Shown: one piece after another, positions 19,384-28,037 of the stretch
Layout of the letters: each line of letters starts with the position of its first letter
How positions within the stretch are numbered: position 1 is the first letter of the stretch
From: Escherichia virus TH57
DNA length: 64,000 nt
Sequence record: MT446422.1
Direction: 5' to 3' (one strand)
Program-made: the position numbers and the translations under genes
The notes under the pieces: model-generated
Databases searched by the model: none
What the model saw: the letters and a program-made list of their open reading frames with translations, nothing else
What the model was told of the DNA's origin: nothing

Positions 19384-19731
19384 ATGACCAAACAACATGG
19401 ATTAAATATGGAATTACCAATTAAAGCAGTAGGTGAATATATTATTTTGGTTTCTGAGCCAAAGCAAGCTGGCGATGAAGAAACTACGGCATCAGGTATC
19501 GTTATCGGAAAACTCCATCAGGGTGAAATCCCAGAGATGTGTGAAGTATTTTCGATTGGCCCAGATGTTCCTGAAGGTTTCTGTGAAGTAGGTGATTTGA
19601 CTCCTCTTCCGGTTGGCAAGATTGCAAACGTTCCACATCCTCTGGTTGCTCTGGGACTTAAGCAGGCTAAAGAAGTTAAGCAGAAATTTGTGACCTGTCA
19701 TTATAAAGCTGTTCCTTGTCTTTATAAGTAA
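19384..19731 (+). CDS. 31: co-chaperonin gp31 (GroES analogue)
   Basis: [67 protein letters not shown] match T4 gp31. Confidence 0.9.
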
Positions 19732-19740
19732 AATTAGCGT

Positions 19741-19748
19741 TATAAATA
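19741..19748 (+). promoter_or_regulatory. T4 late promoter (TATAAATA)
   Basis: Plus-strand TATAAATA; the first ATG of the track ORF at 19754 is too close to be translated from it, supporting the downstream start. Confidence 0.4.
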
Positions 19749-19888
19749 ATAATATGGATTGGCTGCCGGACCAGTTAGTTACCCGGAGAATCCTAAACGG
19801 TGGACTACAACTGAGAGACTTGCCGAAAGGAAGTGAAATTCAGAAGAACGTGTCCACCAAATATTCACCTCATATTGAGGCTTCTAAA

Positions 19889-20143
19889 ATGTCTTTAAAC
19901 AAACAATTACAACACGCTCTTGAACTGCAACGCACTGCATGGAATAACGGTCACGAAAACTACGGCGCATCTATTGATGTTGAAGCCGAAGCACTGGAAA
20001 TTCTGCAGTATTTCAAACATCTTAACCCGGTACAAACCGACCTTCGCGCTGTACTCGAAGCTAAAGATGAATTGAAATATGCTAAGCCGCTGGCATCTGC
20101 TGCGCGTAAAGCTGTTCGACATTTTGTCGTTACTCTGAAGTAA
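19889..20143 (+). CDS. rIII: putative rIII lysis-inhibition accessory protein
   Basis: 84 aa from Met 46 of track ORF 19754..20143; size and position next to gene 31 fit T4 rIII; synteny and size only. Confidence 0.4.
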   Translation: MSLNKQLQHALELQRTAWNNGHENYGASIDVEAEALEILQYFKHLNPVQTDLRAVLEAKDELKYAKPLASAARKAVRHFVVTLK

Positions 20144-20389
20144 GTTTTAGGTGATTCGCTACCTTAAGTGCGGCTAGAAAATCGAGGAGCCGTCGAACTG
20201 TCTGATTAATGATTTGCGAATCATTATAGTTTTAAGACCCCGGCAGTTTTATGGTGTACCTCTTGAATGTGAATGATGACGGGTTTATGGTTATCCTGGT
20301 CGTTAAATATCCAAAAACCTATGTTCCCTTCGAGGGCTTGCGCAGGCAATGTCAATAAGTCCTGCATTCTATTTTAAAGAGAATTTAAT

Positions 20390-20551
20390 ATGGCTAAGAA
20401 AGAAGTTAAAGTTGTTGATGGCTCCTCCAAACGCGCTGGTTACAAGCGTGCGTCCAACAAGCGAATCAATCAGGTGACTGATAAACTTCAGGCTCGTGCT
20501 CGTGCGGTATTGCGTGCCGATGCAGCTTGCTTTGGTAAGCCGAAAGCATAA
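20390..20551 (+). CDS. small basic protein (53 aa), hypothetical
   Basis: Read from sequence: MAKKEVKVVDGSSKRAGYKRASNKR...; below the track size cutoff; followed at once by a strong terminator; SD weak. Confidence 0.3.
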   Translation: MAKKEVKVVDGSSKRAGYKRASNKRINQVTDKLQARARAVLRADAACFGKPKA

Positions 20552-20556
20552 GTTCA

Positions 20557-20581
20557 GGGGCTCTTCGGAGCCCTTTTTTTT
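20557..20581 (+). terminator. Rho-independent terminator
   Basis: GGGCTC-TTCG-GAGCCC hairpin plus 8-T run. Confidence 0.65.
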
Positions 20582-20594
20582 CTAGGAAAATATT

Positions 20595-20951
20595 ATGAAC
20601 GATAGATACAATCACACGTTTACTACACCGCGTGGAGCATCGTATGCAGCGCCTGGTCTGGAGCCATACAATGCAATTCCGGAACATCATCCTGCTGCAT
20701 ATGTTCCACCAAGCCCTCCGATATACACACCACCTGCGAAACCGTATGACGATGCAATTTATCTTGTCGCTTTCTTAAGTGAAGCTGGTACACAAGACCG
20801 GGGCTGTCAACGTTCTGGTTTGCTTACTGAACTGGAAGCACATAAACGCGCCAGAGAATGGATTGAGACAAATCCAAAGGGTGAAGCTATTGTAATGAAA
20901 GCCAAAAACTTCTATACAGCTGAAGTAACCCATAAAATAATTATCAAATGA
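20595..20951 (+). CDS. hypothetical protein (Pro-rich N-terminal half)
   Basis: 118-aa ORF between two terminators. Confidence 0.4.
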   Translation: MNDRYNHTFTTPRGASYAAPGLEPYNAIPEHHPAAYVPPSPPIYTPPAKPYDDAIYLVAFLSEAGTQDRGCQRSGLLTELEAHKRAREWIETNPKGEAIVMKAKNFYTAEVTHKIIIK

Positions 20952-20976
20952 CTCCTTCGGGAGTCTTTTTTTTTTT
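20950..20976 (+). terminator. Rho-independent terminator
   Basis: GACTCC-TTCG-GGAGTC hairpin plus 11-T run. Confidence 0.7.
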
Positions 20977-20985
20977 CATAAAAGG

Positions 20986-21014
20986 TGTACAACAGGATTT
21001 GCCCAGTGCATAAT
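20986..21014 (+). promoter_or_regulatory. T4-type early promoter (second copy of the 2644-2672 cassette)
   Basis: TGTACA, 17 nt, CATAAT; 27-nt block GCATAATGATTCCATACTGAGTTACAC identical to 2666-2692. Confidence 0.55.
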
Positions 21015-21055
21015 GATTCCATACTGAGTTACACAATAAAACACTGGAGAATAAA

Positions 21056-21424
21056 ATGAAAATCAATCTTAACTCATACATCAAAGGTAAAGACCACGAC
21101 GGTTACAAAGCCATTGAAACTAAAGAGATGCAATGGCACTTGTATAAAGAACAGTTTGAATTTGTTGGTTGCATGACTCCTGAAGGTCCTTCTGATGACT
21201 TCTCTTGGAAAATTATGGTAACAAACTTTTTTACTGGTGATACCTACGAACTGAAAACTATCATAACCGGTAAGATTCGTTGTAAGACCTATGAAGATGA
21301 AGAAACTGGTTATTCTGAAGATGTTACATGGTATCAAAATGGTCGCAATACTGCTGATGATTTGATTGAAAAAATGAAAGCTAAGGGTGAATTAAATTTA
21401 GATAATTGGATTAAAGTCGCATAA
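21056..21424 (+). CDS. hypothetical protein
   Basis: 122-aa ORF, SD GGAGAA. Confidence 0.4.
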   Translation: MKINLNSYIKGKDHDGYKAIETKEMQWHLYKEQFEFVGCMTPEGPSDDFSWKIMVTNFFTGDTYELKTIITGKIRCKTYEDEETGYSEDVTWYQNGRNTADDLIEKMKAKGELNLDNWIKVA

Positions 21425-21428
21425 AACA

Positions 21429-21468
21429 GTTTACTTTGGTACAGGTTATGATATTATAGACCTGTACC
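21429..21468 (+). promoter_or_regulatory. T4-type early promoter with 9-bp perfect inverted repeat across the -10
   Basis: GTTTAC, 17 nt, TATTAT; GGTACAGGT ... ACCTGTACC flank the -10. Confidence 0.45.
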
Positions 21469-21495
21469 AACAAATGAAAACAACTGGAGAATAAA

Positions 21496-21861
21496 ATGAA
21501 CTACATCAACTTTGAACGCAAATATGTTTCTATCAGTGCAGTTGGTTCTAACGAGTATATGAGCTTATGGGAACATAAAAATGGTTCGGTATGTGAAATT
21601 GACCATTGGGTTTCTCCTGATTATGTTTATATGCGATTTGAAAATGGTATCACCCTTTCAATCACTAAAGAAGGTTCTACTTTTAAAATCGCGTTAGATG
21701 ATGATTTCCGTGAACGTGATTTAGGAACTCATCCTTGCTGGAATGGTGTTAATCGCAAGCTTCTGGTTAAAACTTGGATTCGTCACATCCTGAGCAATAA
21801 AGCAAAACCTGAACACCTGGAAGCAATCTTTGATGTAGTTCTTAATGAATTTGATATCTAA
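21496..21861 (+). CDS. hypothetical protein
   Basis: 121-aa ORF, SD GGAGAA. Confidence 0.4.
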   Translation: MNYINFERKYVSISAVGSNEYMSLWEHKNGSVCEIDHWVSPDYVYMRFENGITLSITKEGSTFKIALDDDFRERDLGTHPCWNGVNRKLLVKTWIRHILSNKAKPEHLEAIFDVVLNEFDI

Positions 21862-21899
21862 TCTTAAATGGGGGCGAAAGCCCCTTTGAGGAAAATACT

Positions 21900-22187
21900 A
21901 TGTTTATGACTACTTACTTTGATACACGTAAAAATTTCTGTGAAGTTGTTTTCTCTAAAAAAGGCCCTAATGTTCCTGCTGGGTGTGAACCAACACGCGA
22001 TTCCATTAAGAACTATGTTGATGTAGTTTGTCCACTAGAATTCAGGACTGTTAATGGACGCGATACTCTGGCAATCACCAAGCTTAGACGCGACATTGAT
22101 ATTGACCCAATTGCTGCGCGGGAAATTAATTCATCTGATATTAATGGTAAAAATGTTAAATCACGCGGTTTCCTGACGAGGTTCTAA
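21900..22187 (+). CDS. hypothetical protein
   Basis: 95-aa ORF, SD GAGGAAAA. Confidence 0.4.
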   Translation: MFMTTYFDTRKNFCEVVFSKKGPNVPAGCEPTRDSIKNYVDVVCPLEFRTVNGRDTLAITKLRRDIDIDPIAAREINSSDINGKNVKSRGFLTRF

Positions 22188-22381
22188 TGAAATTATTCTT
22201 ATCACAAACTGTTCAGTTAAAAGGTGTGGGTATTCCTGGAATGATTTCAAAGGTCCTGCCTGCTTTTAAATTCGGGGGTATTGTAATTAAAGAAGCGTAT
22301 TTAGTCTTGTGGGTTGATGGAACTGAAGACCTTCGCATGGGTGGTGAGTTGTCTGTAATCAAATGTTTAAAGCGAGGCTAA
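22187..22381 (+). CDS. hypothetical protein
   Basis: 64-aa ORF with overlapping stop/start. Confidence 0.35.
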   Translation: MKLFLSQTVQLKGVGIPGMISKVLPAFKFGGIVIKEAYLVLWVDGTEDLRMGGELSVIKCLKRG

Positions 22382-22382
22382 T

Positions 22383-22595
22383 ATGTTTAAGAAATTGATT
22401 CAGAAGATTTTGGGCACAGAAATGGTTGAAGTGACTTATCGCGTGACCGACGTAAGTCCATGGGCCCGAAATATTGAACCATATACTAAAACAATTAAAA
22501 TGCTGAAATCTGACGGCGGATTATCTATTAAAGACCGTCTACCTGGTTATGGTCATTGGGCTGATGTAGAGATTATCAGTGTCAAAGATATTTAA
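22383..22595 (+). CDS. hypothetical 70-aa protein, tandem paralog A
   Basis: MFKKLIQKILGTEMVEVTYRVTD...SIKDRLPGYGHW...IISVKDI parallels the next ORF. Confidence 0.45.
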   Translation: MFKKLIQKILGTEMVEVTYRVTDVSPWARNIEPYTKTIKMLKSDGGLSIKDRLPGYGHWADVEIISVKDI

Positions 22596-22604
22596 GGAAC
22601 CTTC

Positions 22605-22817
22605 ATGATTAATAAATTATTTAAAAAGCTGTTTGGCTTGGAAATGGTTGAAGTGACTTATCGTGTTATTGATTTATCACCGCCATATGCTTGCGATGAA
22701 GATGCTATTAAAACTGTTGTTATGCGAAAAACATATCGCGGGCGGTCAATTAAAGAAAGATTGCCAGACCATGGCATGTGGTATGCAACCAAGATTATCA
22801 GTGTCAAAGATGTCTGA
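22605..22817 (+). CDS. hypothetical 70-aa protein, tandem paralog B
   Basis: MINKLFKKLFGLEMVEVTYRVID...SIKERLPDHGMW...IISVKDV. Confidence 0.45.
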   Translation: MINKLFKKLFGLEMVEVTYRVIDLSPPYACDEDAIKTVVMRKTYRGRSIKERLPDHGMWYATKIISVKDV

Positions 22818-23268
22818 GTTAGAAATCAGAAGTAATTTTCCGTGGCCATCATGTGCATTAAGTAACTTTGCTAAATGGCCTTTTGTTATGGAGGGTATCC
22901 AGTTTGGAGGTCTTGAAGGCTTCCTACAAGGATGCAAGGTGAGAAATGTTGAACAACAAAAACGTATATTTGGGATGTCCGGATTGGCCGCCCAGCAAAG
23001 TGGAAGAGCTTATGCAAGAGCTGCGGACCGTGGGACGCTTTTCTGGTGTGGAATTCCCTTTTCAAGATACTCTACAGCATGGAAAGAGTTGTATACAAAT
23101 GCATATTTTGAAGCAGCGCTCCAAAACAGAGGGTTTCGCGATGCGTTACAATCCACAAAAGGCAAAGTTTTAAAGCATTCGATGGCAAGTCACCTTACTG
23201 TTCATGATACAATATTGACTGAACAAGAATTTATTGACATACTTAACCAATTGAGAGATGCATTATGA
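22810..23268 (+). CDS. NADAR-like (YbiA-like) domain protein, candidate ADP-ribose/N-glycoside hydrolase
   Basis: 152 aa from Met 50 of track ORF 22663..23268; LSNFAKWPF, EGFLQGCK and YFEAALQNRGFRDALQST resemble YbiA/NADAR blocks as recalled; start overlaps upstream stop. Confidence 0.45.
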   Translation: MSELEIRSNFPWPSCALSNFAKWPFVMEGIQFGGLEGFLQGCKVRNVEQQKRIFGMSGLAAQQSGRAYARAADRGTLFWCGIPFSRYSTAWKELYTNAYFEAALQNRGFRDALQSTKGKVLKHSMASHLTVHDTILTEQEFIDILNQLRDAL

Positions 23269-24089
23269 AACCCGTTATTTTAACAGATATTGATGGCGTA
23301 TGTTTGTCATGGCAGTCTGGCTTGCCTTATTTCGCTCAAAAATATAATTTACCCCTGGAACACATCCTTAAGATGATTCAGGATGAAAAATTTGTGACCC
23401 CTGGTAAACTTTTCAATTGTGATGAAGAGTTAGGCGCGCAGTTAATTGAAAAATATAACTGTTCGGACTTTATTCGCTATTTGTCTCCTTATGCGGATGC
23501 ATTAAGGGTTATTAATAACATTAAAGAGCAATATGATTTTGTGGCTGTTACAGCACTGGGTGATTCTATTGATGCTCGCCTGAATCGTCAATTCAACCTG
23601 AATGCTTTGTTCCCTGGGGCATTTAAAGAAGTGATGATGTGTGGTCATACAGCCTCTAAAGAGGAGTTATTTCAGAAGGCAAAAGACAAATATAATGTCA
23701 TTTGTTATATTGATGACCTTGCGCACCATTGCGACCATGCGAGTGAAATTCTTGAGGTTCCTGTTTATTGGATGGCCCGCGGCGAACGTGATGCTATTCC
23801 TAAAACAGCTTCCAAAGTTTTTAATTGGGACGATGTTGCTGGACAGCTTAAACTGAAACACAAAGATGAACCGGTCAAACCAGAATTCACCCCAGATGAA
23901 CTCCGTAAACTGGAAGAGCTGTTTCGTGAAACTCGCCGTCTTCAACAACAAATGCAACAAGGCTGGCAACCAGGTCAACCATGGACTCCTGGTTATAATC
24001 CAGCATATCCATATCAATATGGCCAGCGTGTGGGTACTGGTATTGAATATTGGTACAATCAACCGACCGGTGGCCAAGGGGGTAATTGA
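23265..24089 (+). CDS. HAD-superfamily phosphatase-like protein with Gln/Pro/Tyr-rich C-terminal tail
   Basis: 274 aa; N-terminal HAD motif I ILTDIDGV; C-terminal low-complexity QQQMQQGWQPGQPWTPGYNPAYPYQYGQ; ATGA overlap with NADAR-like gene. Confidence 0.45.
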   Translation: MKPVILTDIDGVCLSWQSGLPYFAQKYNLPLEHILKMIQDEKFVTPGKLFNCDEELGAQLIEKYNCSDFIRYLSPYADALRVINNIKEQYDFVAVTALGDSIDARLNRQFNLNALFPGAFKEVMMCGHTASKEELFQKAKDKYNVICYIDDLAHHCDHASEILEVPVYWMARGERDAIPKTASKVFNWDDVAGQLKLKHKDEPVKPEFTPDELRKLEELFRETRRLQQQMQQGWQPGQPWTPGYNPAYPYQYGQRVGTGIEYWYNQPTGGQGGN

Positions 24090-24367
24090 TGTTTGTCGTT
24101 CATACTATTTCTGATTATGGTCCTACTACTACCATGGATTATGGCCATGTTAATCAGTTTATTCGTCATGTGAATCATGATTACTCGTTTGATATTAACC
24201 CAGCCAAAGACCATCCGGTTTGGCGTGAATGCGTTGAGCAAGGGTTTATCTATGTTCACTTTATGTCTAAGTTTAAACCAGATGGGCGAATGAGATTTGT
24301 GTTCTCTTATCATAAGCGTCTGGATTTGCTTTTGGAAGATGTGGCATATAATAGAGCCAACGACTAA
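24086..24367 (+). CDS. hypothetical protein
   Basis: 93-aa ORF coupled between the HAD-like gene and ligase. Confidence 0.4.
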   Translation: MMFVVHTISDYGPTTTMDYGHVNQFIRHVNHDYSFDINPAKDHPVWRECVEQGFIYVHFMSKFKPDGRMRFVFSYHKRLDLLLEDVAYNRAND

Positions 24368-24370
24368 GAG

Positions 24371-25918
24371 GTGATTATGATTTTAGATATTTTAAATGAA
24401 ATTGCTGCAACCGATTCCACTAAAGAGAAACAAGCTATCCTGGAATCGTATTCTGACAATGAAACCCTTAAACGCGTGTATCGTTTGACATATTCCAAAG
24501 GCATCCAGTTCTATATCAAGAAATGGCCAAAACCTGGGACAACGACTCAAAGCTTTGGTATGTTGAATATCGATGATATGCTTGACTTTATCGAATTTAC
24601 ATTGGCCTCTCGCAAATTGACAGGTAATGCTGCAATCGAGGAATTATCTGGCTATATTGCTGATGGTAAAAAAGCAGATGTTGAAGTTCTTCGCCGTGTG
24701 ATGATGCGTGACCTGGAATGCGGGGCATCCGTATCAATTGCAAATAAGGTTTGGAAAGGTTTAATTCCTGAACAACCGCAGATGCTTGCTTCTTCCTATG
24801 ATGAAGCCGGTATTGCCAAGAACATTAAGTTCCCGGCCTTTGCGCAATTGAAAGCCGACGGTGCTCGGTGTTTTGCAGAAGTTCGTGGCGATGAGTTGGA
24901 TGATGTTCGATTGTTATCCCGAGCTGGCAACGAATACCTCAAGCTTGACCTCCTTAAAAAGGAATTAATTGAAGCCACCCGTGAAGCGCGTGAGAGACAC
25001 CCTGAGGGCGTTTTAATTGATGGTGAGTTAGTATACCATGAACAGAAAGTAGCTCCCCAGAATGACGGTTTGGGCTTCCTTTTTGACGATATGCCTGAGC
25101 TTAGCAAGGCAAAAGAATTCGAGGAATTCGCGGAATCAAGAACCTTTTCAAATGGTCTGGCAAACAAATCATTGAAAGGAACTATTTCTGCAGCAGAAGC
25201 TTCTTGCATGAAATTCCAGGTTTGGGATTATGTTCCGCTGATTGAAGTCTATTCTGATGTTAAGATTCTCAATCCGTTGAAATACGATGTGCGTTTTGCT
25301 GTTCTGGAAAAAATGATTGCAGATAACGTGGTGCTGCACGGTTTTGACCGCATGATTCTGATTGAAAACCATGTTGTTAACAATCTCGATGAAGCGAAGG
25401 TTATCTATAAGAAATATGTGGATGAAGGTCTTGAAGGTATTATCCTTAAGAACATGGCATCGATTTGGGAAAACAAGCGCTCCAAGAACTTGTACAAGTT
25501 CAAAGAAGTAATTGACATTGCAATGGAAATCATTGGATATTACGAGCACGATAAAGACCCGAATAAGATTGGCGGTGTTGTGCTTCGTTCTTCTTGTGGT
25601 AAGATTACGAATAACTGTGGTTCTGGTTTTAAAGACACAACTCAAGTCAAAGATAAGAAAACCAAAAAATGGGTTACTATTCCGATTGAGAAGCGTCATG
25701 AAATGGACCGTGAAGCCTTGATGGTTAAAGCTCGTAAAGGTGAATTGGTTGGAATGATTGCTGACTGTGAATGTAATGGTTGGGTGACTTCCGAGACTCG
25801 TAAAGATAATACGGTTGCATTGTTCCTGCCGATTATCAAAGGGTTCCGTTTCGATAAAGACCATGCAGACACATTCGAAGATGTATTTGGCGACTGGTCA
25901 AAGACTGGGTTAAAATAA
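24371..25918 (+). CDS. 30: ATP-dependent DNA ligase
   Basis: 515 aa; ILNEIAATDSTKEKQAILE, adenylation motif FAQLKADGARCFAEV, VLIDGELV, GLEGIILK; long stretches match T4 gp30. Confidence 0.95.
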   Translation: MIMILDILNEIAATDSTKEKQAILESYSDNETLKRVYRLTYSKGIQFYIKKWPKPGTTTQSFGMLNIDDMLDFIEFTLASRKLTGNAAIEELSGYIADGKKADVEVLRRVMMRDLECGASVSIANKVWKGLIPEQPQMLASSYDEAGIAKNIKFPAFAQLKADGARCFAEVRGDELDDVRLLSRAGNEYLKLDLLKKELIEATREARERHPEGVLIDGELVYHEQKVAPQNDGLGFLFDDMPELSKAKEFEEFAESRTFSNGLANKSLKGTISAAEASCMKFQVWDYVPLIEVYSDVKILNPLKYDVRFAVLEKMIADNVVLHGFDRMILIENHVVNNLDEAKVIYKKYVDEGLEGIILKNMASIWENKRSKNLYKFKEVIDIAMEIIGYYEHDKDPNKIGGVVLRSSCGKITNNCGSGFKDTTQVKDKKTKKWVTIPIEKRHEMDREALMVKARKGELVGMIADCECNGWVTSETRKDNTVALFLPIIKGFRFDKDHADTFEDVFGDWSKTGLK

Positions 25919-25923
25919 CAAAA

Positions 25924-25941
25924 GGGCTTCGGCCCTTTTTT
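25924..25941 (+). terminator. Rho-independent terminator after ligase
   Basis: GGGCTTCGGCCC hairpin plus TTTTTT. Confidence 0.65.
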
Positions 25942-25943
25942 AG

Positions 25944-25951
25944 TATAAATA
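25944..25951 (+). promoter_or_regulatory. T4 late promoter (TATAAATA) for alt
   Basis: Plus-strand TATAAATA ~25 nt upstream of the alt ATG. Confidence 0.5.
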
Positions 25952-25976
25952 CATAATATTTTATAAGGAACCTATT

Positions 25977-28037
25977 ATGTCTGAACAATTAAATGAACTC
26001 TTTGACAAATATATCGAAGCCTTCGGTTATCCTGTCATTAATATGAATCCAAAATACAAGGTCCCGCAGGTTTGGCAATTCGGTGTTCCTGGGACCAATT
26101 CTCTTATGGCCCGTTTGATGCAATTCACGGGCAAAGAAACAGTTAAACAATATAAACGTGGCGATGCAATTGCCGAGGTATTCCTGTTATCCGGGACTTC
26201 ACACGGCCACGCTGTTCCTCTGAAGGGTGGTCTAGGTGAAAAACCTCTTGACGCGATTAACCTGATTTTTGTTACAGTCTGGGAAAGCATTAAACTAGGT
26301 AAACCTGATGTAGTCTTGTTCCGTTTCCCATCCAAAAAGATGAAAGGACAAGACCAAGCTGTTATTCGTATTATGAATCGACTGATTCAAATGAAAACCA
26401 GCGGGCGTTATCATGTTCTTCCGAATGCTTCTGGCCTCGGTAAAAAGAACGCTTATGTAATTATGTACAAAAAGGGTGTTGACCTGCTTTCGGTTGATGG
26501 TATGCCACCAGTCCCTGAGAAATATCAAAAAGTTGAAACTAAAGTTGGCGATGTATTCACCAATAAAGATACAGGCGCGCAAGTCTCCAAACAAGAAATC
26601 GCAGCCGAAGTTCTGATTGACGCAGCAAACAAAAAGACCGATGCGGCTGTTGCACAGAAAACAAAAATCAGCCGCCGAGCTATTGCACAAGCCCAGTACG
26701 CTCCAAGTGATTCCGTGCCAGAAGGTTGGGACGAAATTGATGCAGAAGCTGCTAAGTTTAGTCGACCGGCTACAGCAGAACTTATTGATGATTATGAAGA
26801 ACTGGAAATTTTTGTTCGACCTTCCGAAACGAATACTATGGCTCGTATGCGCGCAGCAGATACGGCTATGCGTGCAAATGGTGTTTGGAAAGAAGAAATT
26901 CGTGTTGAAGACTCCGACCCAATTTTTAACCGTATGCATCGCGAACTTAAACGTGCCCCAGTTGGTAGTATGAAGCAGATGCAGATTTTTGCCGAATCAT
27001 GTGCAGAGATTCTTAACCTTCGCAAAGCCGCATTTATCGAAAGAAAAATGAATGATGCTCCTCCTAACCTGGATGCAGCCACTTATGCAGCCACGCTCTG
27101 GGAAGAAGAATACACAAGCGCCATTCGTGTTGCAGTTAAAGACTTTGCAGAAGAAGCATCAGAAAATACTCTTAATTTCACAGCAGGGTATACTGACAAC
27201 CGTTTCCATTATGGCCAGCGTGAAGCAATTGCAGATTATTGTGGAGCCAACTATGTCGATATTAATAATTATTTGATGGGTAATTATTATGAAGAAGACG
27301 CCGAATTCCTAAATCTAGACAGAGTTGTCGAAACAATTAAGGAATTGGATTCGGCCTTTGAAATTGGACATAAGTTGCCACCTAATACAACTCTTTGGCG
27401 TGGTCAATATTTAAACGTTCCTACATTTAATAAAATTAAACAGTCGAAATTATTTTATTTTAGGAACTATGTATCAACATCATTTAAACCAATTATCTTT
27501 GGTGGCTGGGTGGCGAACGTTGCTATGGCCGCAGTTCATCAGGACTATCGCGACGGGACATCTTTCCAGGCTGATGACGAAATTGTTTTACCAAATATCC
27601 CAGGTGCAAACCCGGACAACGCAATGATTCATGTCGGTTGGAAAATTTCTGGGGCAGACTTAATTAACGTAATTGTTCCTGGGGAATTGTCAGGCAACCC
27701 ATCCGAGCAGGAAGTTATTCTTCCACGTGGAACTGTAGTTAAGATTACCAAAATTACGGATGCTTCGTATAAAGGAAACGCGAACGTCAAAATGCTGGAA
27801 GCTGATATCCAGACCACTGACCAACTGGATGAAAATGCAGTTATCTATGATGGTGATGTGTTGATGGAAACTGGTGAGCTTGTCGTTTATCAGGGCGAGG
27901 AATCAGAAGAGCCAGTAGAATCTGTTGACTTTGCATCGTTTGCATCCTCCGGGGTGACGAAGAAAGTCAATCAAGGTCTTGGTATTCTTGCTAGTTGTAT
28001 TAATTTGGAAGCTATTCCTCCTAAATTCCTTTCGTAG
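25977..28037 (+). CDS. alt: ADP-ribosyltransferase Alt (virion-packaged, modifies host RNA polymerase)
   Basis: 686 aa; ART-type motifs (NYVSTSF with STS, EQEVILPRG with catalytic Glu); position after ligase as in T4. Confidence 0.8.
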   Translation: MSEQLNELFDKYIEAFGYPVINMNPKYKVPQVWQFGVPGTNSLMARLMQFTGKETVKQYKRGDAIAEVFLLSGTSHGHAVPLKGGLGEKPLDAINLIFVTVWESIKLGKPDVVLFRFPSKKMKGQDQAVIRIMNRLIQMKTSGRYHVLPNASGLGKKNAYVIMYKKGVDLLSVDGMPPVPEKYQKVETKVGDVFTNKDTGAQVSKQEIAAEVLIDAANKKTDAAVAQKTKISRRAIAQAQYAPSDSVPEGWDEIDAEAAKFSRPATAELIDDYEELEIFVRPSETNTMARMRAADTAMRANGVWKEEIRVEDSDPIFNRMHRELKRAPVGSMKQMQIFAESCAEILNLRKAAFIERKMNDAPPNLDAATYAATLWEEEYTSAIRVAVKDFAEEASENTLNFTAGYTDNRFHYGQREAIADYCGANYVDINNYLMGNYYEEDAEFLNLDRVVETIKELDSAFEIGHKLPPNTTLWRGQYLNVPTFNKIKQSKLFYFRNYVSTSFKPIIFGGWVANVAMAAVHQDYRDGTSFQADDEIVLPNIPGANPDNAMIHVGWKISGADLINVIVPGELSGNPSEQEVILPRGTVVKITKITDASYKGNANVKMLEADIQTTDQLDENAVIYDGDVLMETGELVVYQGEESEEPVESVDFASFASSGVTKKVNQGLGILASCINLEAIPPKFLS

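Follow-up and report, generated by a model that had tools for sequence, protein, structure and literature searches.

The window analysed here, 64,000 nucleotides of Escherichia virus TH57 (MT446422.1), contains two adjacent open reading frames (ORFs) of 70 amino acids (aa), copy A (22383..22595) and copy B (22605..22817), which are almost certainly paralogs of gene 30.4 of phage T4. Copy B is a divergent addition to a known, uncharacterised family, and the arrangement itself already occurs, without having been described, in public genomes (a dozen in GenBank). Comparison of alleles from related phages makes it very probable that the split between the copies is old, that B has spread horizontally and that it is lost by recombination. 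The proteins are tentatively assigned to the counter-defence module of the downstream gene 30.3 (adfN), and confidence in the combined explanation of identity, evolution and function is slightly better than even. All genes and sequence blocks located below lie on the plus strand.

Identification of the gene pair

A and B align end to end and without gaps in BLASTP, with identities at 37 of 70 positions (53%, E=7e-23), a similarity far above chance. The copies have corresponding start motifs (MFKKLIQKILG in A, MINKLFKKLFG in B), central motifs (SIKDRLP and SIKERLP) and C-terminal motifs (IISVKDI and IISVKDV); the full-length paralogy and the three shared motifs proposed in a first-pass annotation of the sequence thus hold under formal alignment. 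Both proteins match PHROG 2042 from residue 1 to residue 70 of their length (profile of 72 positions; E=1.7e-34 for A and 2.9e-26 for B). Neither matched the local copy of Pfam-A, which predates the model PF26911 (Phage_T4_Y12I) that represents T4 gp30.4; homologs, and the tandem pair of a metagenomic locus (L009), carry this model as a precomputed annotation.

The two copies lie in the same frame with a period of 222 nucleotides (nt), separated by a 9-nt spacer (22596..22604) at the duplication junction that supplies most of B's ribosome-binding site. The Shine-Dalgarno sequence of A is GAGG (22374-22377), 5 nt ahead of its ATG; that of B, AAGGAA (22594-22599), stands about 6 nt ahead of its ATG and covers A's stop codon and the spacer. 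The spacer is unlike the sequence ahead of A. In their central regions, A carries a cassette of the 'WARN-IEPYTKTIKMLKSDGGL' type and B the cassette 'PYAC-DEDAIKTVVMRKTYRGR'. The same A/B junction, with one to three substitutions, was present in all 14 tandem loci examined.

A holds the ancestral left slot, straight after gene 30.5, and terminates in KDI-TAA, where single-copy genes terminate in KDV-TGA. B holds the ancestral right slot, coupled to adfN: its stop overlaps the adfN start by 8 nt (ATGTCTGA, 22810-22817), an overlap also found between 30.4 and 30.3 in T4, PP01 and VR25; for adfN itself no Shine-Dalgarno sequence is evident. The coupling of the pair to the NADAR-like gene, likewise proposed in the first pass, therefore applies to B but not to A, which ends at its own TAA and is followed by the spacer.

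Age of the split and selection on the two copies

A and B are 61% identical at the nucleotide level and 51% identical at third codon positions. According to the Nei-Gojobori method, the proportion of synonymous differences (pS) is 0.68, synonymous divergence (dS) is about 1.8 and saturated, nonsynonymous divergence (dN) is 0.40, and the overall dN/dS ratio (omega) is about 0.22; the proportion of nonsynonymous differences (pN) reaches 0.50 in the central third. In a neighbour-joining family tree rooted on T4, B forms the longest branch of the non-Tequatrovirus clade, and it is 46-59% identical to every other allele, with A at 53%. T4 gp30.4 shares 46% identity with A and 30% with B. The C-terminal family motif RLP-x-YGHWADVEIISV is kept in A; B has RLPDHGMWYATKIISV, retaining only R, L, P, G, W and IISV, and the stretch PGYGHWADVEI, conserved even in T4, becomes PDHGMWYATKI. 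Because only part of this motif is retained, B appears to be a divergent subfamily rather than a typical 30.4 member.

These values point to an old and asymmetric split, with unequal divergence of the copies. The first-pass annotation had described a recent tandem duplication, which does not agree with saturated synonymous sites or with a copy B that is as far from A as from other alleles. The recent event is the horizontal spread of B, not its birth.

Variable codons among B sequences comprise 19 synonymous and 7 nonsynonymous cases (14 sequences, 11 distinct), and nonsynonymous change per site shows a roughly ten-fold deficit; B is thus under purifying selection rather than in decay. A differs from the 30.4 protein of VR25 at 4 of 70 residues (dS 0.14, omega 0.17) and shares 95-97% identity with the 30.4 of related Gaprivervirus phages that have a single copy, such as TH41 and EAWsc9. 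Given purifying selection and the same predicted fold, both copies look like expressed, functional genes.

Predicted fold and hypervariable loop

AlphaFold2 (AF2) predicts the same secondary structure for A and B, a helix (residues 2-10) followed by three strands (14-23, 34-41 and 60-69), with a mean predicted local distance difference test score (pLDDT) of 87 for A and 84.8 for B; the two copies are thus predicted to share one fold. In the family alignment, residues 1-26 and 48-70 are conserved and the centre consists of discrete cassettes. The hypervariable segment is the beta1-beta2 loop between the strands at 14-23 and 34-41 (codons 24-33; 22452..22481 in A, 22674-22703 in B). Between A of the window and A of WG01, pS is 0.70 and pN 0.03 in codons 1-23, pS 0.12 and pN 0.22 in codons 24-47, and pS 0.32 and pN 0.76 in codons 27-31 of the loop. 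The pattern, based on small counts, suggests a hypervariable loop carried on a constrained scaffold. Of the divergence through selection for variants that the first pass envisaged, a diversification localised in the loop (codons 27-31, pN above pS) is supported; overall omega between the copies is low.

Fold searches returned no functional analogue, and neither protein matched a characterised anti-defence protein or inhibitor by homology or fold. A DNA mimic was ruled out: A and B are basic (isoelectric points (pI) of 9.0 and 9.4) and the T4 protein is acidic (pI 4.6). Two BFVD proteins have a similar predicted fold, one of 76 aa from Citrobacter phage Merlin (27% identity, Foldseek E=3e-3) and one of 64 aa from Escherichia phage EcS1; both could be distant relatives of 30.4 from other genera of T4-like phages.

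Distribution of the family and of the pair

Among 50,697 phage records, a tblastn search with A located the 30.4 family in 721, all of them T-evens of Escherichia, Shigella, Yersinia, Salmonella or Citrobacter. Only 13 of these 721 records have the family in two places; T4 and about 98% of the records are single-copy. Copy number thus varies across related phages, with one copy in most. The two-copy phages belong to Gaprivervirus (TH54, TH44, PSD2001, P896 and CJ20) and Dhakavirus (dhaeg, LHE83, WG01 in two records, PSD2002, ABTNLS3, 04086 and probably fDHCT2, for which no genus is recorded). In a tblastn search with B, B-type sequence (at least 90% identity) was found in 14 records, the next best match being at 58.6%; the fourteenth record is phage 212, which has one copy.

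When 1.84 billion representative proteins were searched exhaustively with a profile, only three genuine family clusters were recovered, along with two spurious matches to repetitive proteins; the search yielded neither distant relatives nor a lead to function, which indicates that the 30.4 family is narrowly confined. A word-indexed search of 5.8 billion proteins with B gave only three B-type matches, one tandem copy and two A/B chimeras, and no full-length single-copy B-type gene occurs in the 50,697 phage records. No description of the tandem pair was found in the searched literature.

Phages carrying B or an A/B chimera often come from poultry, duck or swine faeces (WG01, LHE83, ABTNLS3, fDHCT2, PSD2001, P896, CJ20 and 212). 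This origin may reflect the sampling of Dhakavirus and Gaprivervirus.

Recombination at the locus

Nucleotide identity of B in the window to its Dhakavirus counterparts is 98-99%, with a dS of 0 relative to LHE83 and 04086 and of 0.10 relative to dhaeg; for A and the flanks it is 85-88%, with dS values of 0.31-0.50 (0.31 for copy A relative to LHE83). Sliding identity delimits a shared tract of about 400 bp (~22494..22890, boundaries approximate) that is 96-100% identical to Dhakavirus LHE83, WG01, dhaeg and 04086, between flanks that are ~62-96% identical in 50-nt windows. The tract takes in the C-terminal half of A, the intervening spacer, all of B and some 27 codons at the start of adfN, and marks a recently exchanged mosaic segment.

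Four different copy-A cassettes stand ahead of B (WARN-IEPY, VHPQ-DEPY, HTADHLEPY and YLQDNKEK), all A copies in arrays end in KDI-TAA with the same spacer, and B is always of the PYAC type. Because the cassettes vary and the KDI-TAA end, spacer and B do not, B and its junction would have arisen once, and B would then have spread as a cassette by homologous recombination in conserved flanks, namely the C-terminal block of 30.4 on the left and adfN on the right.

Although the copies are otherwise saturated in synonymous differences, A and B share two blocks of identical nucleotides. One, of 23 nt (GAAATGGTTGAAGTGACTTATCG), covers codons 13-20 (22419..22441 in A, 22641-22663 in B); the other, of 20 nt (AGATTATCAGTGTCAAAGAT), covers C-terminal codons (22570..22589 in A, 22792-22811 in B) and, both in B and where 30.4 is single-copy, leads directly into the start codon of adfN. 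The same codon is used in 12 of 13 cases within the blocks versus 8 of 20 outside them (Fisher p=0.004; blocks defined post hoc). The single genes of phage 212 and of two metagenomic sequences (P0002 and P0003) are of the A type as far as nt 36 and match B at 100% from nt 60 on, which places the crossover within nt 37-59, that is, in the 23-nt block; it was mapped in phage 212 and in a metagenomic locus (L012). The 23-nt block is thus a substrate for recombination between the copies, by which the array collapses to a single-copy A/B chimera.

Two points temper this account: the same-codon comparison was set up after the alignment had been viewed, and, as no full-length single-copy B-type gene was found, B may have arisen either by duplication in place or by capture from elsewhere. 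A recent local duplication of the resident 30.4, with rapid diversifying selection thereafter, would agree with the strict head-to-tail arrangement in one frame, with the two identical blocks and with the fast evolution of the loop in the family. Such an origin is nevertheless improbable, considering the saturated synonymous sites and low overall omega, a B that is no nearer to the resident A than to alleles of other genera, the dissimilar sequences ahead of the two copies, and the occurrence of the same B behind four A cassettes in two genera. Alternatively, B could be the 30.4 allele of an unsampled T-even lineage, joined to the resident gene by unequal or illegitimate recombination during co-infection, in which case the pair would be xenologs. 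Mosaic exchange is evidently frequent at the locus, the 15 nt ahead of B (ATTTAAGGAACCTTC) are not those of the resident 30.5/30.4 junction and loosely resemble that of T4 (TTAAAGGAATTAGT), and a single-copy allele (P0027, 'YEFC...VMRK') is a weak sister of B in the tree. However, neither the phage records nor the 5.8 billion proteins yielded B as a complete single gene, and B has lost a motif kept in every single-copy allele, T4 included, which is more readily explained by constraint that was relaxed or altered in a redundant copy than by an orthologous allele with an unchanged role; capture is a rather unlikely source of B. An old split followed by horizontal spread and recombinational loss is the account retained here.

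Link to adfN and DarTG1

T4 gene 30.3 has been renamed adfN; its product is a NADAR ADP-ribosylglycohydrolase that strips DarT1 ADP-ribose from DNA, and T4 growth on DarTG1 requires it (PMC11825919). AdfN shows no antitoxin action in uninfected cells and gives scant rescue of phages outside Tevenvirinae (T5, Bas25); it is fully effective only in T-even infection and may require an additional T-even protein (PMC11825919). In the window, adfN (22810..23268, 152 aa) was identified by Pfam PF08010 (Phage_30_3, 3.4e-63), and its function is taken from the T4 ortholog (PMC11825919). Throughout the T-even cluster of Tequatrovirus, Mosigvirus, Gaprivervirus and Dhakavirus, 30.4 always lies directly upstream of adfN with the 8-nt start overlap. 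The ranges of the two genes match, with 721 records for 30.4 and about 730 for adfN alleles of at least 60% identity; adfN homologs at greater distance number about 780, from phages of Klebsiella, Acinetobacter, Aeromonas, Vibrio and others, and no 30.4 was detected there.

Transposon sequencing of T4 by HIDEN-SEQ found 30.4 to be non-essential on K-12 (10.1101/2025.11.20.689424). Genes 30.1-30.9 are all non-essential in that data set, which bears out the description of the locus as an accessory operon. In the sheet 'resampling_Control_vs_DarTG1' (Extended Data Table 6, S6), exactly two T4 genes are significant as conditionally essential, 30.3 with a log2 fold change (log2FC) of -7.25 and 30.4 with a log2FC of -1.79 (p=1e-4, adjusted p=0.014); neither 30.6 nor 30.7 shows an effect, 30.5 is non-significant owing to an outlier site, and on DarTG2 30.4 shows no effect (log2FC -0.03) (10.1101/2025.11.20.689424). 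The preprint authors discuss only 30.3, and 30.4 is absent from their main text (10.1101/2025.11.20.689424). The reading of 30.4 given here is our own, made from the table, and concerns T4 data rather than the phage of the window.

Proposed function

The probable role of gp30.4 is that of a small binding protein within the adfN counter-defence module. The conserved face of the protein would bind a partner that stays constant, and the loop would follow a host or defence target that varies; with B the phage would gain a second specificity, and in two-copy phages it is B, not A, that is translationally coupled to adfN. The full proposal, in which gp30.4 proteins are binding factors of the module and both the loop and the extra paralog provide alternative specificities, is tentative and held at clearly less than even confidence. 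A more specific version, in which gp30.4 is the 'additional T-even-encoded protein' that AdfN needs against DarT1 outside the test tube, with the loop and B setting which DarT or defence variants are countered, is unlikely. As the only other T4 gene that scores on DarTG1, and one coupled to adfN, 30.4 is nonetheless a candidate for the dependence of AdfN on T-even infection. If the more specific version is true, the A/B pair would be a two-specificity adaptor set for an enzymatic counter-defence.

Several observations weigh against this proposal. The HIDEN-SEQ effect of 30.4 is only partial, and a polar effect in cis on adfN explains it equally well: the transposon has no terminator but carries stop codons in all three frames at its ends (10.1101/2025.11.20.689424), so that insertions in 30.4 would uncouple adfN, for which no separate Shine-Dalgarno sequence is evident. 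The ORF upstream of adfN is unrelated to 30.4 in Krischvirus 011D4 and Tegunavirus phiR1-RT, and none is annotated in Slopekvirus AYL; a role of gp30.4 as universal partner of AdfN was rejected, since distant T4-like adfN homologs have an unrelated or no annotated upstream ORF. T4 adfN in trans rescues RB69 (PMC11825919), although gp30.4 of RB69 differs considerably from that of T4 (74% identity to copy A for RB69 versus 46% for T4), so matching of 30.4 and adfN alleles does not seem to be needed. Net charge is not conserved across the family, as the pI values above indicate, and gp30.4, gene 30.4 or Y12I is mentioned in a phage context in no paper of the searched literature.

The main rival explanation is that the proteins do something unrelated to adfN or defence, as early host-takeover or neutral accessory proteins, and that the only link to adfN is translational coupling; the DarTG1 phenotype would be purely polar and B a tolerated, weakly useful allele. 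The size of the 30.4 effect relative to that of adfN, the expected dependence of adfN on coupling through the overlap, the termination of translation by the transposon, the unrelated ORFs upstream of adfN in other T4-like genera and the dispensability of 30.4 on K-12 all agree with such a view, which falls not far short of an even chance. It sits less well with the clear purifying selection on both copies and their confident predicted folds, with a hypervariable loop suggestive of an antagonistic interaction, and with the lack of effect of insertions in 30.6 and 30.7 of the same operon; the HIDEN-SEQ authors also argue against widespread polar effects (10.1101/2025.11.20.689424). It is very improbable that the ORFs are mere translated leaders (upstream ORFs) delivering ribosomes to adfN and encoding functionless peptides: the 8-nt overlap is conserved from T4 to the window, as that model would expect, but the amino-acid sequence is conserved too (omega ~0.1-0.3), the AF2 models are confident, and A is conserved although it is uncoupled from adfN.

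The first-pass annotation had compared the pair to small anti-defence or inhibitor proteins. The suggestion gains from the position of the genes beside a proven counter-defence gene and from the significance of 30.4 on DarTG1, and loses from the possible polarity of that effect and the absence of resemblance to characterised inhibitors; it is reasonable but unproven.

Whatever the function, phages with a single A, an A+B pair or an A/B chimera in otherwise similar genomes form a natural comparison set for the role of the loop, and the locus is an example of how short conserved intragenic blocks enable the gain of a cassette, its exchange across genera and its loss. Taken alone, a divergent extra copy of a small accessory gene is an ordinary feature of a T-even hyperplastic region.

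Neighbouring genes and transcription unit

The closest record to the window in megablast is Gaprivervirus TH54 (98.7% over 1.6 kb), which places the window in Tevenvirinae. The locus is the accessory region between rIII and DNA ligase of a T-even phage, with the gene order rIII, 30.9, 30.8, 30.7, 30.6, 30.5, A, B, 30.3, 30.2, 30.1 and 30 (ligase), which by synteny is the order annotated in T4, PP01 and VR25. The neighbours match the Pfam families Phage_30_8, Phage_T4_Gp30_7, Phage_30_3 and DUF3045, followed by the ATP-dependent DNA ligase. Gene 30.5 (22187..22381, 64 aa; PHROG 1690, 1.7e-28, and synteny with T4 and VR25) has its stop codon 1 nt before the ATG of A. No Rfam family was found within 19500-26500 and no MotA-box middle-promoter pattern between 19377 and 24579, and scans for sigma-70 promoters and terminators revealed nothing dividing the copies from each other or from their neighbours. 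Since no such element separates the copies, the pair appears to lie inside one transcription unit.

An extra ORF of 118 aa (20595-20951, plus strand) with a proline-rich N-terminus and a match to PHROG 17531 lies between 30.9 and 30.8, flanked by terminator-like GC hairpins with T-runs (20556-20575 and 20950-20965). The corresponding slot is only ~115 nt long in close relatives such as ECML-359. The full insert is present in only four phage records (TH54, 212 and, twice, SP18, where it is named gp30.6A), and pieces of the segment repeat two to five times per genome.

Within adfN, a 75-aa ORF in another frame (22946-23173, plus strand) is the counterpart of T4 30.3', annotated in the T4 record as a product of internal translation that reads gene 30.3 in a different frame. 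The codons for the B-specific residues W-Y-A (tgg tAT Gca) create an ATG in the adfN frame, 27 nt upstream of the adfN start (22783-22812). A 161-aa AdfN starting from this B-internal ATG is annotated in PSD2001, CJ20 and the metagenomic locus L009, and PSD2001 and CJ20 leave B unannotated. The 161-aa call is probably a gene-caller artefact, and B-carrying phages may have an N-terminally extended AdfN isoform. Downstream, the gp30.2 homolog (23265-24089, plus strand, 274 aa; PHROG 420) has a weak polynucleotide-kinase-like match; its C-terminal tail is of low complexity, with many Q, P, G and Y residues (...QQQMQQGWQPGQPWTPGYNPAYPYQYGQ...GGQGGN).

Comparison with known systems

Small phage inhibitors such as the uracil-DNA glycosylase inhibitor p56 were compared as a kind of protein, and gp30.4 has no sequence or fold resemblance to any characterised inhibitor. 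AdfN (T4 gp30.3) is the immediate downstream, translationally coupled neighbour of 30.4, and both genes are significant on DarTG1; unlike AdfN, gp30.4 has neither an enzyme-like fold nor NADAR homology. The nearest named relative is T4 gp30.4 itself (UniProt Y12I_BPT4; PF26911; PHROG 2042; 68 aa, uncharacterised), with which the window ORFs share the profile, the length class and the slot between 30.5 and 30.3, and B also the same 8-nt overlap with 30.3. T4 has a single copy whereas the window has two, and B lacks the family's most conserved C-terminal motif (YGHWADVEI, replaced by HGMWYATKI). The same two-gene array and junction as in the window are present in WG01 (ORF208/ORF207), dhaeg (dhaeg_55/56, both VOG1998) and LHE83 (WEY10262/WEY10263). 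Annotated Dhakavirus and Gaprivervirus pairs are deposited only as 'hypothetical protein', with B left unannotated in some (PSD2001, CJ20), and their B proteins are 94-100% identical to B of the window.

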